DNA of 64,000 bases, from the IMG/VR virus record IMGVR_UViG_3300027987_000266. One strand, 5' to 3'. The translations under genes and the position numbers were made by a program. Source of the DNA: a virus. The notes below the pieces were generated by a model. It saw nothing but the letters and a program-made list of their open reading frames with translations, was not told the DNA's origin and searched no databases. Shown here piece by piece: positions 51,374 through 57,550 of the stretch (the stretch's first letter is position 1; each line of letters begins with the position of its first letter).

Positions 51374-52957
51374 CTATAAATACGTTGGGATGAAGACCTG
51401 GCTCGCGTAAAGTCTAGATGCTGCAACGCGATAGCCATGATCCCAAAACGTGTCTTCCTCCTCCGTGACAAAGAACCTTTCGAATCCACGATGCAGCAGC
51501 CGATACTGCAGAGCGTCCCGCTCCATCTCTTCTAACCAGAGAGCACGGTTAGGACCGTGGTTGTAACAATACGGCTTCAATAGCTGACGACCGAGCATCT
51601 CGATTGTTTCGCGATCGCCTTCCCAGGCACCGCCAAACAAAACATGAGTATTGGTGCTGTCACCAATCTTGGCTTCGTACTGTTCAAAATCGTGCACTCG
51701 CAAGTAACCCTGGAAGTCCTCCAGCCAGAACTGGACGACGTCGTCGCCAAGGCGATTCCGAACCAACCTCGTCACTGCGTCGCGGTCAGTGACGCCCGGC
51801 CTGACAAGAACAGCCAAGTCCAGGTCTGAATCTGGCCCGCCGTATCCCTTGAGCTTCGACCCAAAGGCGATAGTGACCGGAAAGATGACGCTGCATAGCT
51901 CCGCATCCTCTTCCAGGGCCTTCCTTGCCTTCTCCCGGCCCTCTTTGGCGGCAGCGAGGTTCAGGGACCAGGGACCATCCAAGTGCGGGAAGAAAAAGCC
52001 GAGAGCCTCGAAGGAGGTCTTCGGCATCGCCCCACAGCTGAATAATCTAGACGCAACCATTGCTGCGGTGTTACGAAGAGTCTGATCGTTGCAAAGGGTG
52101 AGCAGGTCATATTCGAATTGACCGTAGAGTCGAGGCACGGCCTCAATCGCCGAGCCAATCCCAACCAGCAACGCCTCCCTCGAATCCTGGTTGAGAGGGC
52201 CAACTGACTCGATCGAGTAAATGCCAGAAGAAAAGAAATGACCAAGACTACGGCCGATTTTCTGAATCGTCCGTCGCCGATGCTCCCACAATAACCAGTC
52301 TTGACGCTTTTTGCTCCCAGCCACATATGGGAAACTGTTCAGATGCAGTGCCAGGTACTCTGTGAATTCACCTTCTGGGATTATAGCTGCTCTGGGACGA
52401 GTCCTGTGCGGAAGATGCTCGTATTTCTCGTTCTCCGACAATTGTTCCATGAATTGGTTCGATATCAGCCCTTTGTAGACAAGATGCGGACCGAGTTGAG
52501 CAGCCTTGATCACTCGCCGCATTGGCCTGTCTTTAAGTTCGATATCAGGAACGTCGCCGTCCAGAAAGTTGGCCTCGATGTCTTCCACTTCCAACATTCG
52601 GTGCCACGCCGAGAGATAGAGTTCGGCGAATTCATCCACCACGTTGCCGTGATTGCGAAACCAACTGGCTTCTGGCAGGATGTTGAGAGGGCAGTAGAGG
52701 ATGAAGCGGTCGTTACCAGCCTTGAGTAGCTGATTGAGAGATGCGTACAAGTCCGTTACCAAGCGGCTTGATTCCGAGCAATCCCAATCGATTTCGTTTG
52801 GGCCGATGAAGCGGAAAGCTGCTTCAAGTCGCTCGTATAGTTCGCGGCGTTTGGTGAACTGGTCTGGGCTACCGTTTTCTAGCCCGCTCCAAACGCCAGT
52901 GGAGCCGCTGATGAGCGACTCCACTGGCGACGGAACGCTGACGAATTGCTGTTGCAT
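51374..52957 (-). CDS. two-domain protein with C-terminal nucleotidyltransferase (pol-beta superfamily) domain
   Basis: GSKLKGYGGPDSDLDLAVLV matches the GS..G..D.D nucleotidyltransferase signature at residues about 370-390. The 360-aa N-terminal domain is unknown. Confidence 0.65.
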   Translation of the reverse strand: MQQQFVSVPSPVESLISGSTGVWSGLENGSPDQFTKRRELYERLEAAFRFIGPNEIDWDCSESSRLVTDLYASLNQLLKAGNDRFILYCPLNILPEASWFRNHGNVVDEFAELYLSAWHRMLEVEDIEANFLDGDVPDIELKDRPMRRVIKAAQLGPHLVYKGLISNQFMEQLSENEKYEHLPHRTRPRAAIIPEGEFTEYLALHLNSFPYVAGSKKRQDWLLWEHRRRTIQKIGRSLGHFFSSGIYSIESVGPLNQDSREALLVGIGSAIEAVPRLYGQFEYDLLTLCNDQTLRNTAAMVASRLFSCGAMPKTSFEALGFFFPHLDGPWSLNLAAAKEGREKARKALEEDAELCSVIFPVTIAFGSKLKGYGGPDSDLDLAVLVRPGVTDRDAVTRLVRNRLGDDVVQFWLEDFQGYLRVHDFEQYEAKIGDSTNTHVLFGGAWEGDRETIEMLGRQLLKPYCYNHGPNRALWLEEMERDALQYRLLHRGFERFFVTEEEDTFWDHGYRVAASRLYASQVFIPTYL

Positions 52958-54192
52958 CAGGTCACAAACTCAGTCTTGCCGTCACGGTTGCGGACGCGGC
53001 CACGAGGCGTGCTGCTGCCGATCCCACCGGGGCGACCGACATTCGTCTTTTCCAGATCGCTCCACGGAATTTGCGAGCCGAGCATGTAGAGCGTACCGAA
53101 GTATTGCAGCTCGTCGTTGCCCGCCGCGACGCGGTTGGCCTGCATAATCGAGAGGACGAACTTGGTGAGGTTCTGCTCCATTCTCGGGTAAGTCGCAGGC
53201 ACCGCGACGTTCAGCTTCTTGAGCAACATGTCGCGGCTCGGCATTCCGCACAGGAGCGGCAGTCGCGGGCTGTCCATGATCTTCTTGATCTCGTTGGCCT
53301 CGTAGGCGAGAGCCGCCGTGATCTGGACGCCGGTGCCACGGAACGTGCGGTTGAGAGCGTCGTTGACGGTCTCAGCGGCGTCACGGAGAACGCCACAGTC
53401 CGGGGGCTGCATCATGCCCGGAGGCAGACCGAATCCGCCGCCGCCCAACGATCCGGCGATCGCGGCCATCATCATGCCGGGGTTGGCGACACCCTGCATC
53501 CAGGACTGTTGCCAGCCGCCCAGCTGCTCGTTGAACGAGATGATGGCGGGCCACAGATTGTCGGTAATGCGGGTGAGCAGTTCCTGCTTCCGCTTATCGG
53601 TCACGTAGCTGCCGTCGAGTCCATCGATGGCCTGGAACAGGTCACCGTACGACTTGCGGGTCAGCTGCTTGCGGAGAGTCCAGAACTCTTCGGTCACCTG
53701 CTCTTCGGTGACTTCAACGAAGTCTTCCATCGCCGAAACGAGCAGTTTCGGGATGCCGTACAGACCGAAGCGGTCGGCGAGGGCGACGCGAATCGCCGAA
53801 ATCACCGTGGATTGCTCGATCTTGAGGACGCCACCAGCACGCAGCGAGTTGAGCCACGAGGCGTCATCGGGAACGGCGGGCAGAACGGTGTCGAATGCAG
53901 CCGTCGCGGCTGCGGTGCTCGCAGCAGCGTCGTGCGAGCCATTGCTCAGACCCTGCACGGCCTTACGGGCCTTCAACACGGGAATACCGACGCCGGTCAG
54001 GTCGCTTTCGGTCAATCCGGTAAGATCGTCGATGCTTTCGGCACCGAGTCCCAAGATCGCCTTGACCTGTGCCTCGTCGGTGATGCCGACTTCGCTCAGC
54101 TTCGTAACGATCGGGTTTGCGACCGGGGCTTCGACGACCGGAGTGGTCGGGGTGTCAGGAGTGGTCGGGGTGTCAGGAGTTTCGTCAGCCAT
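52957..54192 (-). CDS. hypothetical protein with N-terminal TPDTPTTP repeats
   Basis: 411-aa ORF coupled to both neighbours. Confidence 0.55.
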   Translation of the reverse strand: MADETPDTPTTPDTPTTPVVEAPVANPIVTKLSEVGITDEAQVKAILGLGAESIDDLTGLTESDLTGVGIPVLKARKAVQGLSNGSHDAAASTAAATAAFDTVLPAVPDDASWLNSLRAGGVLKIEQSTVISAIRVALADRFGLYGIPKLLVSAMEDFVEVTEEQVTEEFWTLRKQLTRKSYGDLFQAIDGLDGSYVTDKRKQELLTRITDNLWPAIISFNEQLGGWQQSWMQGVANPGMMMAAIAGSLGGGGFGLPPGMMQPPDCGVLRDAAETVNDALNRTFRGTGVQITAALAYEANEIKKIMDSPRLPLLCGMPSRDMLLKKLNVAVPATYPRMEQNLTKFVLSIMQANRVAAGNDELQYFGTLYMLGSQIPWSDLEKTNVGRPGGIGSSTPRGRVRNRDGKTEFVT

Positions 54193-56709: not shown

Positions 56710-57550
56710 GAGCCGCAGTCCTTCCTAGTGGTTGCGTTCTGAACTTGTAAAATCCAGGCTCCCACACAGAGTCTGGAGCTGCACACAACTCGTCGACGAT
56801 GCCATAGAACTTGCTATGTGCTTTCGTGGCATCCGACTCACCATCGATCGCCAATGACCGGAGGTAGTTTGTGTATGGAATGTCGGCGTCGTTTTCACGA
56901 GCCGCAGCGAGATCGCCGCCAAGCACCGCAATCACGCTTTTGGCGGCAAGTTTGACTTCATTTCTGCGAACAGACCCAGGCACACCCTTCTCGTGGATGA
57001 CAGCCTTGGACCAATCGAACAGGATGGAGAAATGCTGATCTGGTTCGATCAGCACATTGTTCCCTGAGATCTTGCCCACTTCGATTCGATTGTCGTGGGC
57101 GAAGGCGATGATTTTGAGAATCTTCCCGAGAATCCACGCACTGGTGCGGAGATCGACGCGAAGCCCGACTTTGGTGATCTTCACCAGCGGGATTATCGCT
57201 TCGACTTTCTCCACGCCTCTGAATCCAAGGACGTTGACTTGTCTTCCGCCTTGGTGCCGTAGGACGAAGCTGTCGCAGACCTCTGGGAATCCAAGGCCAA
57301 AATTGAGAACGCCTTCGTTGCCTGCTTCGGCATATTCGCGTTCGATGGCGTCGGCCGCCTCAGCAAGACGCGTCAGAGCGAGAGCGTTGACAGCTAGCTC
57401 ACTGTTCTTTGTTGCGTCAATGGCGATTTGGATGAGAAGTTCGCGTCCACCGCTGGACACGCCACGACGAATCCGGTAGATCGGATTCTCGGCGACGACG
57501 TCACGAACGTCGTATTGGTCGTTTTTGCCTTCGATCATTCTGGCCTCCAC
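56702..57550 (-). CDS. hypothetical protein, first gene of a coupled operon
   Basis: 282-aa ORF. Alternative start MIEGKN at 57538 with GGAGG ribosome-binding site. Confidence 0.5.
   Translation of the reverse strand: MEARMIEGKNDQYDVRDVVAENPIYRIRRGVSSGGRELLIQIAIDATKNSELAVNALALTRLAEAADAIEREYAEAGNEGVLNFGLGFPEVCDSFVLRHQGGRQVNVLGFRGVEKVEAIIPLVKITKVGLRVDLRTSAWILGKILKIIAFAHDNRIEVGKISGNNVLIEPDQHFSILFDWSKAVIHEKGVPGSVRRNEVKLAAKSVIAVLGGDLAAARENDADIPYTNYLRSLAIDGESDATKAHSKFYGIVDELCAAPDSVWEPGFYKFRTQPLGRTAAHG

Follow-up and report, generated by a model that had tools for sequence, protein, structure and literature searches.

A phage-borne copy of a gene module, widespread in Patescibacteria, that couples a VWA protein to a predicted ligase of the adenylosuccinate synthetase superfamily

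What might a phage do with a chain of overlapping genes that places a VWA protein, a relative of adenylosuccinate synthetase (AdSS) and a nucleotidyltransferase (NTase) side by side? The locus lies in the viral record IMGVR_UViG_3300027987_000266, of which a stretch of 64,000 nucleotides, here called the window, was analysed. A first-pass annotation had described five minus-strand reading frames at 51374-57550 and concluded that this combination of enzymes matches no known pathway. The latter statement holds: no such pathway was found in the literature, and dedicated phage surveys make no mention of one. Here we ask whether the five genes form a unit, how far that unit extends, and what its component proteins and genomic surroundings suggest about its function.

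Extent and flanks of the gene block

All five reading frames are present at the positions given for them (Table 1), together with the motifs quoted from their products: DTTGSM in V, the TPDTPTTP repeats at the N-terminus of U and GSKLKGYGGPDSDLDLAV in N. Their stops and starts overlap at all four junctions, by 8 nt at K/V (ATGGGTAA) and A/U (ATGGCTGA), by 4 nt at V/A (GTGA) and by 1 nt at U/N (TGATG), and the proposal that the block is co-transcribed and translationally coupled is supported. That about 80 unrelated genomes keep K, V, A, U and N in the same order shows them to be genes rather than chance reading frames. Comparison with homologue N-termini favours two revised starts: for K, the ATG at 57538, preceded by GGAGG, is the more likely one, and A may begin at ATG 55561.

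Table 1. Features of the gene block and its flanks in the window
Feature	Position	Strand	Length, start or location	Description
K	57550-56702	minus	282 aa from GTG 57550	kinase-fold pseudoenzyme (predicted)
V	56709-55567	minus	380 aa	VWA protein
A	55570-54185	minus	461 aa	AdSS-superfamily enzyme
U	54192-52957	minus	411 aa	HhH + all-alpha domain
N	52957-51374	minus	527 aa	helical repeats + NTase
174-aa ORF	51373-50849	minus	begins 1-4 nt past N stop	
Cys-rich ORF	50846-50448	minus	132 aa	final gene of minus-strand run
GC-rich hairpin GGGCCGGGG...CCGGCCC, then TTTT	57660-57631	minus	directly past ARPP-1 stop	read from sequence

The boundaries of the unit are less tidy than was first supposed. Five genes are indeed chained, but the chain does not end at 51374: two further ORFs continue it, the second beginning 2 nt after the first, with no terminator in between. 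The 174-aa ORF, which is present on the source contig, contains a 48-residue stretch resembling T4 gp23 (Pfam Gp23, E 7e-12, residues 98-145 only), while family-profile searches returned no family match for the 132-aa ORF. Both are absent from all related loci compared, and the 174-aa ORF is co-transcribed with the module yet lies outside its conserved part. On the upstream side, where the nearest gene matches the family profile of ARPP-1, the reported terminator is visible as a hairpin followed by TTTT, although a consensus terminator scan made no call there; the hairpin is a probable terminator that would shield the module from upstream transcription. The promoter-like motif reported at 57558-57590 has no sigma-70 match and is not repeated within the window. 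With an open 3' end and an unsupported promoter motif, the picture of a clean terminator-promoter-operon unit has to be given up.

Conservation in Patescibacteria and phages

The first-pass annotation had noted that its view of the block would fail if the genes were not co-conserved elsewhere. All five are, decisively so. The five-gene order occurs in at least 80 loci of Patescibacteria (CPR), where tblastn shows it intact in practically every one of 80 genome loci, and it recurs in three phage-like contigs (L002, L005 and L093). Clustering of neighbouring genes returned these five as the only conserved families, and A itself, like the cassette as a whole, is present in hundreds of cellular CPR genomes. 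The genes in the window are a phage-borne copy of this conserved module, K-V-A-U-N, which is widespread in Patescibacteria.

Within the module, V and A are the most constant pair. V lies directly upstream of A in all CPR loci and in about 60 of the 66 IMG/VR loci recovered by profile searches, where A is 23-34% identical; K is present in some 28 of these 66 distant loci. Cultured phages of Mycobacterium, Rhizobium and Vibrio show the V-A arrangement too. The core of the module, which is common in large phages too, is V-A, often with K, whereas U and N do not belong to the core since most phage versions lack them. Bxz1-type (cluster C) mycobacteriophages provide an example: in LRRHood (gp253-gp256) homologues of K (31% identity; gp253, 'Ser/Thr kinase'), V (27%) and A (32%) stand in the same order, without U or N and with a small extra ORF between V and A. 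Annotators have labelled the genes of the Bxz1-type block one at a time ('serine/threonine kinase', 'hypothetical' and 'PurA-like') and have never regarded them as a single unit.

The component proteins

The AdSS-like assignment of A was right, with a full-length match to PF00709 (125 bits, E 3e-36), and databases name the protein adenylosuccinate synth(et)ase. A belongs to the same fold and length class as PurA (EC 6.3.4.4; PF00709, TIGR00184), and the two share the GDxGKG P-loop with its catalytic Asp, the catalytic His in GxxxxH, the guanine-specific Asp of (T)xxD and a C-terminal SxGP motif; the equivalents of D13, K16, H41 and D333 are retained. These shared motifs make GTP-driven O-phosphorylation followed by N-substitution the likely chemistry of A, which with its P-loop, catalytic Asp and His and guanine-specific Asp keeps the AdSS phosphotransfer machinery. 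The scores of A against the NCBIfam PurA equivalogs are nonetheless 93 and 74 bits, where the cut-offs are 402 and 395. In A, N38 is replaced by Q, T129 by I, Q224 by H, V273 by H and T300/T301 by Y/Q, R143 is lost, and the aspartate loop is one residue shorter and has a single Arg. All V-linked A proteins have in common Q38, H273 ('RHG'), [WYF]-Q at 300/301 and the shortened one-Arg loop, a signature found in neither E. coli PurA nor S-2L PurZ. No V-linked homologue retains V273, T300, T301 or R303, which we take to be the aspartate determinants of E. coli AdSS, and N38, T129 and R143, presumably the ligands of the IMP phosphate, are likewise replaced throughout the family; these residue roles reportedly come from the work of Honzatko and Fromm. 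Aspartate might conceivably still be used, given the one loop Arg that is kept and the extra basic residues in the aspartate loop of CPR-type A proteins. The genetic setting of A also departs from that of PurA, with a dedicated VWA gene upstream and no purB partner nearby (none within 10 kb of the module in 160 loci). Its residue pattern marks A as a predicted GTP-dependent ligase of a distinct AdSS subfamily, neither PurA nor PurZ, and since it is not a bona fide member of either, an assay with IMP, GMP or dGMP plus Asp would probably be negative.

V is correctly assigned as a VWA protein. Its MIDAS motif is intact (D81-x-T83-x-S85 ... D190, all invariant in the alignment) and its C-terminal extension is conserved, while the family is small and distinct, with 163 representatives among 1.84 billion proteins, no Pfam VWA match and no PDB sequence match. 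The reading frame of K stands as described but its label 'unknown' does not, as profiles and alignment point to a kinase-fold pseudoenzyme. K matches PHROG 3043 'kinase' (E 1.8e-11), and its family profile matches the catalytic-loop region of the CK2 and StkP kinases (E 2.5e-6). An alignment of 26 sequences varies at both the HRD-Asp and the DFG-Asp positions and conserves no VAIK-type Lys; W139 and H173 are its only invariant residues, a pattern that identifies K as a predicted pseudokinase. K and V are joined in one natural fusion protein (P0323). A MIDAS VWA protein with a dedicated kinase-fold or P-loop NTPase partner is known from TerY-P triads, MoxR-VWA pairs and BchD/BchI, and we presume a resemblance between these pairs and the module; a MoxR-VWA pair of jumbo-phage type lies elsewhere in the window. 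The module differs in that its kinase-fold partner K lacks the catalytic residues, it has neither a PP2C phosphatase nor an AAA+ ATPase, its NTPase partner is of AdSS type, and V falls into a separate small family.

Of the two accessory proteins, U consists of the low-complexity TPDTPTTP N-terminus, an HhH domain similar to the N-terminal domain of Rad51 (a weak match, E 0.003), a flexible linker and an all-alpha domain of about 300 residues for which no fold relative was detected. The NTase assignment of N was correct: a minimal Pol-beta/MNT-type domain (G366-S367 ... D378-x-D380) follows N-terminal HEAT-like helical repeats and a helical linker, and precedes a C-terminal helical domain. The repeats give an AlkD-like match of a kind typical for generic helical repeats.

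NAD context and readings of function

The strongest functional lead, absent from the first-pass annotation, is a connection to NAD metabolism and to NrtR, the regulator of NAD genes that senses ADP-ribose. Rodionov et al. 2008 (PMC2330246) define NrtR operators by a GT-N7-AC core and give ADP-ribose as the known effector. A palindrome with this core, AGTGT-N7-ACACT, is found 30 times, in exact form, across 1.41 Mb of CPR loci. In 12 of 69 CPR loci, where about 0.6 would be expected, the palindrome lies upstream of K at a distance of 125-231 bp; five of the 30 copies stand upstream of N, and the remainder precede nrtR, nadE, pncA or nadB. Among CPR neighbours outside the module, only NrtR, NadE and PncA recur. 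In phage loci L103-L108, NadE-PncA-NrtR-K-V-A form one same-strand block, and in other phages NAMPT or NMNAT-NUDIX adjoins V-A. The CPR module has in common with NrtR regulons 17-21-bp GT-N7-AC palindromes, here upstream of K and N, and often an adjacent nrtR; through these predicted operators it appears to be controlled together with NAD metabolism. The association has limits. Only about one locus in four has an NAD gene within 10 kb, mammal-associated Saccharibacteria loci have neither NAD neighbours nor the palindrome, and the window lacks NAD-salvage genes, nrtR and the AGTGT-N7-ACACT palindrome alike. Phage gene context is also weak evidence, because early regions generally mix nucleotide, NAD and RNA-repair genes. 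To our knowledge, no described NrtR regulon includes an AdSS-like, VWA or pseudokinase gene.

We tentatively propose that the module encodes a ligase complex that depends on GTP and is linked to the salvage of NAD or adenine nucleotides, a reading to which we give slightly less than an even chance. Judging from its residue changes, A would transfer a phosphate from GTP to an oxo or hydroxyl group on a nucleotide-type substrate, and that phosphate would then be displaced by a nucleophile other than aspartate; the new His/aromatic-Gln pocket would suit ammonia, or else a small aromatic amine or pyridine. PurA is homodimeric and receives Arg143 from the partner subunit. In the module, V with its MIDAS metal site and K with its inactive kinase fold would be obligate non-catalytic subunits, and may complete or gate the active site of A in place of that arginine. 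U, with its HhH domain, and N, with its helical repeats and minimal NTase, would be accessory factors of the CPR-type version, possibly concerned with regulatory nucleotidylylation or nucleic-acid tethering. Against this proposal, it gives no reason why a metabolic enzyme should need a VWA protein and a pseudokinase.

The same coupling weighs on one alternative, ordinary purine salvage, in which A, for all its divergence, would be a true adenylosuccinate synthetase (IMP + Asp + GTP), the sole AdSS of Patescibacteria and, in phages, an auxiliary metabolic gene boosting AMP and dATP, with regulators or unrelated genes for neighbours. Patescibacteria rely on salvage for their nucleotides, genes for ribonucleotide reductase and dNMP kinase lie near V-A in some phages, and the PF00709 match, the database names and the retained catalytic and GTP-specificity residues all agree with such a role. 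We nevertheless consider it unlikely: the 93 bits fall far below the curated PurA cut-off, the aspartate and IMP-phosphate positions are replaced in every member, purB is missing from the surroundings, and the invariant coupling to V and the K-V fusion are left unexplained. PurZ of the Z-genome phages (S-2L, phiVC8) offers a phage precedent, being likewise a phage-borne AdSS-superfamily enzyme with altered substrate specificity. A falls within the same family, PHROG 1211 (E 6.7e-40), which lumps PurZ with other phage AdSS-like proteins, and RefSeq phage copies call A homologues '2-aminooxy adenylosuccinate synthetase', as if A made a 2-aminoadenine precursor for the replacement of A by Z in phage DNA. 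PurZ is, however, a short, archaeal-type protein encoded next to datZ and mazZ, with no VWA or pseudokinase partner. The similarity of A to S-2L PurZ is no better than chance (E 0.26), its residue signature differs, homologues of DatZ and MazZ are absent from the 64-kb window, S-2L lacks V, and the same A gene resides in cellular CPR genomes; a PurZ-type pathway is effectively refuted and barely credible.

Other observations hint instead at a nucleic-acid substrate, namely the HhH domain, the AlkD-like repeats and the poly(A)-polymerase-like NTase. The complex might target a purine that is part of RNA or DNA, for example re-aminating deaminated adenine (hypoxanthine) or hypermodifying G, with U and N holding or tailing the polynucleotide and Ro60-type RNA chaperones possibly taking part. 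Loss of the IMP 5'-phosphate ligands would suit a base inside a polymer, and polynucleotide kinase or 2H phosphoesterase genes occur near V-A in other phages. The suggested tie to a Ro60-like neighbour divides in two. It is unsupported for the window, where the 485-aa protein in question has a C-terminal VWA domain and no detectable TROVE domain, no structured RNA, Y-RNA-like or otherwise, turned up, and neither this gene nor that of ARPP-1 adjoins the module in any related locus; genuine TROVE/Ro60 genes do lie 1-6 kb from V-A in at least four other phage lineages. The HhH and AlkD matches are weak or generic, U and N are missing from most phage versions, and NrtR control points to small-molecule NAD metabolism, so that base modification or repair seems to us rather unlikely. 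A conflict system would accommodate the NAD genes differently, either as phage counter-defence that restores NAD+ after host NADase immunity by a third reconstitution route, starting from ADP-ribose, or as a producer of some signal or antimetabolite derived from a nucleotide, V and K then forming a VWA-kinase sensor pair of the TerY kind. The former would have to build a nicotinamide-ribose bond out of a monophosphate ester, which is energetically unfavourable and speaks against it. The aromatic-Gln-His pocket of A could hold a pyridine ring. Beyond the NAMPT, NMNAT-NUDIX, PncA, NadE and NrtR genes that adjoin the module in several phage lineages, a conflict role could draw on the window's ARPP-1 and VWA genes next door, the ARPP-1 family being described only from ADP-ribose-processing systems (PMC9503650), and on the ADP-ribose effector named in PMC2330246, by which the inducer could also be the substrate. 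The module matches no PADLOC defence model, its vertical, syntenic and near-housekeeping pattern in CPR is unlike that of fast-evolving conflict systems, and the window lacks NAD-salvage genes; we regard a conflict role as quite improbable.

Under the salvage proposal, the module would belong to an ADP-ribose-responsive branch of NAD and adenine-nucleotide salvage, for example re-aminating hypoxanthine nucleotides or dinucleotides independently of PurB, or recycling NAD breakdown products. The cassette seems to have gone undescribed as a unit so far, and its phage copy would provide an auxiliary salvage or counter-depletion function.

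Layout and conservation of the five-gene module

K, V, A, U and N (a pseudokinase, a VWA protein, an adenylosuccinate synthetase (AdSS)-like enzyme, an HhH/all-alpha protein and a nucleotidyltransferase, NTase) constitute a conserved gene module. All five minus-strand ORFs proposed in the first-pass annotation are present in the ORF table, and the four stop/start overlaps by which it had chained them can be read directly from the sequence, as ATGGGTAA (K/V), GTGA (V/A), ATGGCTGA (A/U) and TGATG (U/N). The motifs it had named, DTTGSM, TPDTPTTP and GS..G..DLD, likewise occur in the ORF translations. 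Judged against homologue N-termini, the ATG at 57538, which lies behind GGAGG, appears to be the better start for K, and the ATG at 55561 is a possible alternative start for A.

The boundaries of the proposed operon fared less well. It had been taken to end at 51374; in fact the minus-strand run goes on without a gap into ORFs of 174 and 132 aa, neither of which was found by tblastn in the fetched related loci, and which were rejected as module members on that ground. Residues 98-145 of the 174-aa ORF match positions 146-193 of the 376 in the T4 major capsid gp23 model. This match spans 48 residues only, and the ORF, which is tightly coupled to the module end and is found on the source contig too, looks like a free-standing gp23-like fragment. 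Its position adjoining the module prompted the idea that U might be a capsid- or encapsulin-like shell protein, which we rejected as the U model is all-alpha and lacks the HK97 fold. At the other end, a terminator followed by a promoter had been described upstream of K. A GC-rich hairpin plus TTTT (57660-57631) is indeed visible after the stop of the preceding gene, but the promoter-like motif at 57558-57590 has no sigma-70 match and is not repeated within the window, and was discarded as a repeated phage promoter.

Coordinates of the module, its surroundings in the window and TROVE/Ro60-type genes in related phage loci
Feature	Location	Strand	Remarks
K	57550-56702	-	282 aa, ORF table
V	56709-55567	-	380 aa, ORF table
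A	55570-54185	-	461 aa, ORF table
U	54192-52957	-	411 aa, ORF table
N	52957-51374	-	527 aa, ORF table
174-aa ORF	51373-50849	-	gapless continuation of the minus-strand run after N
132-aa ORF	50846-50448	-	continues the same run after the 174-aa ORF
ARPP-1 domain protein	57668-58651	-	E 1e-31; upstream of the module
485-aa protein, C-terminal VWA/MIDAS (DNSVS)	58663-60120	-	adjoins the ARPP-1 gene
Free-standing HNH endonuclease	60210-60776	-	just upstream of the VWA/ARPP pair
Metallopeptidase + VWA (DUF2201_N/DUF2201) near MoxR-like AAA ATPase	12822-14213, 15221-16894	-	
TROVE/Ro60-type gene	L097 13070-14605		near V-A
TROVE/Ro60-type gene	L121 14666-16246		near V-A
TROVE/Ro60-type gene	L145 11634-13079		near V-A
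TROVE/Ro60-type gene	L146 16335-17651		near V-A
TROVE/Ro60-type gene	L165 10400-11908		near V-A

Relatives of A number more than 1000 at E<=1e-10, many of them 57-60% identical and from Patescibacteria (CPR). A scan using one genome per species found a relative of A in at least 435 genomes, of which the best 80 are almost all Patescibacteria and include Saccharibacteria, Paceibacterota, Falkowbacteria, Peribacteria and Uhrbacteria. Comparing the window proteins with all fetched loci by tblastn showed the order and strand of K, V, A and U to be preserved in essentially every CPR locus, with N directly downstream but convergent; in the phage-like contigs L002 (193 kb), L005 (120 kb) and L093 (408 kb) N points the same way as the other genes. 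When all neighbouring ORFs were clustered, broad conservation was limited to the five module families. A lack of co-conservation elsewhere had been named as the observation that would speak against the unit, and this is clearly not what we found: the K-V-A-U-N order recurs across CPR loci, and these five families, and only those, are broadly conserved together.

GenBank phages contained no near-identical DNA match to the window, and relatives on viral contigs came from an alignment-based search, a single-protein query alone having given none. Bxz1-type mycobacteriophages carry, in order, a kinase (gp253), a hypothetical protein (gp254), a small ORF and a "PurA-like" protein (gp256), with gp253, gp254 and gp256 showing 31%, 27% and 32% identity to K, V and A of the window, respectively. 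A more distant set of 66 viral loci, whose AdSS-like gene is 23-34% identical to A, was searched with profiles of all five families. V lies directly upstream of A in about 60 of these and K was detected in about 28, while U and N were found in none. The V-A pair is likewise present in cultured Rhizobium and Vibrio phages. The core of the module is V-A, usually plus K.

The AdSS-like enzyme and its partner proteins

The initial description of A as AdSS-like stands at the level of the superfamily only. A matches PF00709 over its full length (125.5 bits), but misses the cut-offs of the NCBIfam PurA equivalogs by a wide distance (NF002223, 92.8 bits against 402; TIGR00184, 74 against 395.55), and its substrate residues are replaced. 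These replacements were identified by aligning A and its CPR, mycobacteriophage and Rhizobium-phage homologues with 24 IMG/VR homologues, E. coli PurA and PurZ of phage S-2L. Residues D19, K22, H48 and D360 of A are invariant among 22 close homologues and in all 36 aligned superfamily members. In E. coli numbering, D13, K16, H41 and D333 (the P-loop GDxGKG, catalytic and guanine-specific positions) are kept in every V-linked protein; we take Asp13, Lys16 and His41 to serve phosphotransfer and Asp333 to confer guanine specificity. Among Asn38, Thr129, Thr239 and the partner-subunit Arg143', presumably the IMP 5'-phosphate ligands of the E. coli enzyme, A keeps Thr239 only, as S or T: N38 is Q in every V-linked homologue, T129 is mostly C, I or V, and R143 is not conserved. 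The positions that we take to recognise L-aspartate (Val273, Thr300, Thr301, Arg303 and Arg305 in E. coli; Honzatko and Fromm laboratories) have also changed. Every V-linked homologue has H for V273 ("RHG"), Y, W or F for T300 and Q for T301, together with an aspartate loop that is one residue shorter and retains a single conserved Arg. At K331 the V-linked proteins all have W, H or C instead.

A is an AdSS-fold enzyme with its GTP and phosphotransfer residues intact and its acceptor and nucleophile site remodelled. The combination of kept phosphotransfer residues and changed pocket residues suggests that the half of the reaction in which GTP phosphorylates an oxygen is kept, while the nucleophile pocket and part of the nucleotide pocket would have been rebuilt across the family.

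K matches PHROG 3043, 'kinase' (E 1.8e-11), and its family profile matches the catalytic-loop region of CK2 and StkP (E 2.5e-6). At the HxD position the window protein has VGK and that of the Bxz1-type mycobacteriophage LRRHood has HGA; in an alignment of 26 sequences the HxD Asp varies, several members have N, S or L in place of the DFG-like Asp, and no conserved N-lobe (VAIK) Lys is present. From its sequence, K is a pseudokinase, with a predicted protein-kinase-like fold whose catalytic residues are not conserved.

The VWA call for V is upheld by a MIDAS motif (DxSxS...T...D), of which D81, T83, S85 and D190 are invariant across 27 sequences; V also carries a conserved C-terminal extension. 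As there is no Pfam VWA model match at E<0.1 and no PDB sequence match, its fold is assigned from this motif together with weak similarity to long VWA proteins. V belongs to a small family that stands by itself, 1.84 billion proteins having yielded 163 representatives. K and V are physically linked in P0323, a metagenomic, Saccharibacteria-type protein of 679 aa that is a natural fusion of the two. In this polypeptide the K profile aligns with residues 15-291 (hhalign probability 99.5%) and V with residues 324-660, which argues that K and V act as a single physical unit.

N was correctly recognised as a nucleotidyltransferase. Its structure prediction (pLDDT 89.5) contains a minimal Pol-beta/MNT NTase with a GS...DxD motif, in the form hG[GS]-x9-13-Dh[DE]h within a small alpha/beta domain, plus a C-terminal helical domain. 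Structure searches with N returned only generic helical-repeat and MNT matches, and no whole-chain PDB match.

NAD genes, a putative NrtR operator and the phage surroundings

The only recurrent non-module neighbours in CPR loci are an NrtR-type NUDIX-winged-helix protein (19 loci), NadE (9) and the nicotinamidase PncA (6), NrtR being an ADP-ribose-sensing regulator of NAD genes. In one Paceibacterota genome the module is flanked by NrtR, NadB and NadA upstream and by NadE, NAD kinase, a NadD-like protein and PncB downstream. PncA, NrtR and NadE recur, along with NAMPT, as neighbours in phage loci. L103-L108, all phage loci, have the order NadE-PncA-NrtR-K-V-A on a single strand; in a Rhizobium phage the upstream genes include a PRTase and an NMNAT-NUDIX gene; and in the marine phage contigs nearest to the window a NUDIX gene lies upstream and NAMPT downstream. 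An NAD gene lies within 10 kb in only about a quarter of all loci.

The CPR loci also contain an intergenic palindrome, AGTGT-N7-ACACT, in 30 exact copies over 1.41 Mb (e.g. L014 7735-7751, L024 7770-7786, L040 17078-17094 and L009 12774-12846). Of 69 testable loci, 12 have an exact copy at a distance of 125-231 bp upstream of the start of K, against about 0.6 expected, and the count rises to 20 of 69 when one mismatch is allowed. Five further exact copies are located upstream of N, and almost all those remaining are upstream of nrtR, nadE, pncA or nadB. Since many of the sites before K occur where no nrtR is nearby, the signal does not depend on gene adjacency. Rodionov et al. (PMC2330246) describe NrtR operators as palindromes of ~21 bp with a GT-N7-AC core. 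Set against that description, AGTGT-N7-ACACT appears to be the Patescibacteria NrtR operator, and the module a predicted member of an ADP-ribose-responsive NrtR regulon in a substantial part of the Patescibacteria. Mammal-associated Saccharibacteria loci have neither NAD neighbours nor the palindrome, and the window contains no nrtR, no NAD-salvage genes and no copy of AGTGT-N7-ACACT.

Upstream of the module in the window lie an ARPP-1 gene and a gene for a 485-aa protein that had been described as Ro60-like. The ARPP-1 family has been reported only in ADP-ribose-processing conflict systems; these ARPP systems are centred on an ADP-ribosylglycohydrolase and often include a VWA chaperone (PMC9503650). 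The 485-aa protein has no Pfam TROVE or vWA_Ro60 match at E<0.1 and no PDB match, and it resembles neither a phage TROVE protein nor a profile built from five of them. It agrees with Ro60 in the position of the MIDAS motif only, and with no detectable TROVE domain it was set aside as a demonstrable Ro60. By tblastn, neither it nor the ARPP-1 gene accompanies the module in any of 158 related loci. The suggested Ro60 connection may hold in part elsewhere: genuine TROVE/Ro60 genes, with mutual identity of 25-49%, are found 1-6 kb from V-A in at least four phage lineages, in unrelated phages that include the cultured Vibrio phage pv27. Other phages have a polynucleotide kinase or a 2H phosphoesterase near V-A, and together these neighbours keep an RNA-related role alive.

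The window appears to come from a large phage, either T4-related or jumbo. Its metallopeptidase-VWA protein and MoxR-like ATPase are the chaperone pair that has been described from jumbo phages of group 2.2 (PMC7824862). A 955-aa ORF (38305-41172, minus strand) matches the Pfam major-vault-protein shoulder (E 1e-21) and a vault repeat and has no PHROG match; an MVP-like protein is unusual in a phage, and the same window encodes several VWA proteins and possibly a Ro60-shaped protein. Eight tRNA-like genes are present, two with a UCA anticodon. The latter (46766-46840 and 48666-48739, minus strand) are called tRNA-SeC by ARAGORN and confirmed as tRNAs by Rfam, and may be opal-suppressor or recoding tRNAs. 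Within the module TGA remains a stop codon, since V, A and U agree with their homologues at the C-terminus.

Proposed role of the module and its implications

We propose that A would use GTP to phosphorylate a nucleotide-type substrate on an oxo or hydroxyl group, and that a nucleophile other than aspartate would displace the phosphate. V and K would be non-catalytic subunits and may replace the partner-subunit Arg143' contribution of homodimeric PurA; U and N would be lineage-specific accessories, and the physiological role would lie in NAD or adenine-nucleotide salvage. We judge it probable that A is a ligase working in a K-V-A complex on substrates other than those of PurA and PurZ. The overall explanation, NAD-salvage role included, is plausible and put forward tentatively, and any specific reaction is held with much less confidence still.

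A might instead be an ordinary AdSS, in keeping with its membership of the PF00709 superfamily. This is improbable, given the missed equivalog cut-offs, the replaced L-aspartate residues and the absence of a purB-like cluster among the neighbours of approximately 160 loci. The other named branch of the superfamily, PurZ of the 2-aminoadenine pathway, is almost certainly not represented by A: S-2L PurZ has no significant relation to it (BLASTP E 0.26) and differs in residue pattern. The S-2L layout is purZ-mazZ-datZ (mazZ being MazG-like and datZ an HD dATPase), tblastn with DatZ and MazZ against the 64-kb window gave nothing better than E 0.23, and S-2L has no V gene. A Z-genome reading was set aside on these grounds. 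RefSeq and Pharokka-style records (such as NC_031080, NC_070967 and OR413349) call V-linked enzymes '2-aminooxy adenylosuccinate synthetase' (PurZ) via PHROG 1211. Residue signature and context indicate that the V-linked phage enzymes under this label are not PurZ, and the names "adenylosuccinate synthetase" and PurZ are probably both wrong for the module's enzyme; counts of Z-genome phages that rely on the label may be inflated.

Alternatively, the module might act in the modification or repair of nucleic-acid bases, as the TROVE/Ro60, polynucleotide kinase and 2H phosphoesterase genes near V-A in some phages would suggest. Phage early regions, however, commonly mix nucleotide, NAD and RNA-repair genes, and no structured RNA was found near the module: the window contains no Y-RNA-like or other structured RNA, an Rfam search at gathering thresholds returning tRNAs only, and a search for riboswitches or Y RNA in seven CPR loci likewise gave only tRNAs. 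We regard such a role as unlikely. We also give little weight to the module being a conflict or NAD-reconstitution device; PADLOC defence models gave no match.

Returning to the proposed ligase complex, we rate A as a third branch of the AdSS superfamily in terms of function, one whose partners are obligate. It is more doubtful whether K-V-A(-U-N) is a new multi-subunit nucleotide machine, in which a GTP-dependent AdSS-fold ligase dependent on MIDAS-VWA and pseudokinase subunits performs a reaction with no known enzyme, under ADP-ribose/NrtR control, near-essential in Patescibacteria and acquired by jumbo phages; we think it rather unlikely that the assembly as a whole is categorically new. 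Candidate reactions for such a machine are the direct re-amination of nucleotides, dinucleotides (deamino-NAD) or nucleic acids that contain hypoxanthine, or the recycling of ADP-ribose to NAD. If this is true, the jumbo-phage copies would keep adenine and NAD pools intact during infection.

The first-pass statement that this gene combination matches no known pathway agrees with our literature search, which found no description of the module, its CPR distribution, its residue signature or its NrtR link; surveys of jumbo phages and of viral NAD/ADPr systems (Aravind lab) do not mention adenylosuccinate or PurA. In public records the phage members are annotated gene by gene, as "kinase", "hypothetical" and "PurA-like / 2-aminooxy adenylosuccinate synthetase".

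Much of bacterial diversity belongs to the Patescibacteria, which depend on the salvage of nucleotides and cofactors. That hundreds of their genomes carry a five-gene cassette without an assigned function leaves a marked hole in their metabolic maps, and the probable misnaming of A affects reconstructions of purine salvage. The predicted NrtR control and the NAD neighbours provide a testable entry, with ADP-ribose as inducer, GTP as energy source and a non-aspartate nucleophile. Should the module prove to restore NAD or adenine nucleotides, phages would have a further NAD-reconstitution route for escaping NAD-depleting immunity. More generally, an obligate trio of VWA protein, pseudokinase and enzyme would add a new case in which pseudoenzymes act as metabolic-enzyme subunits.
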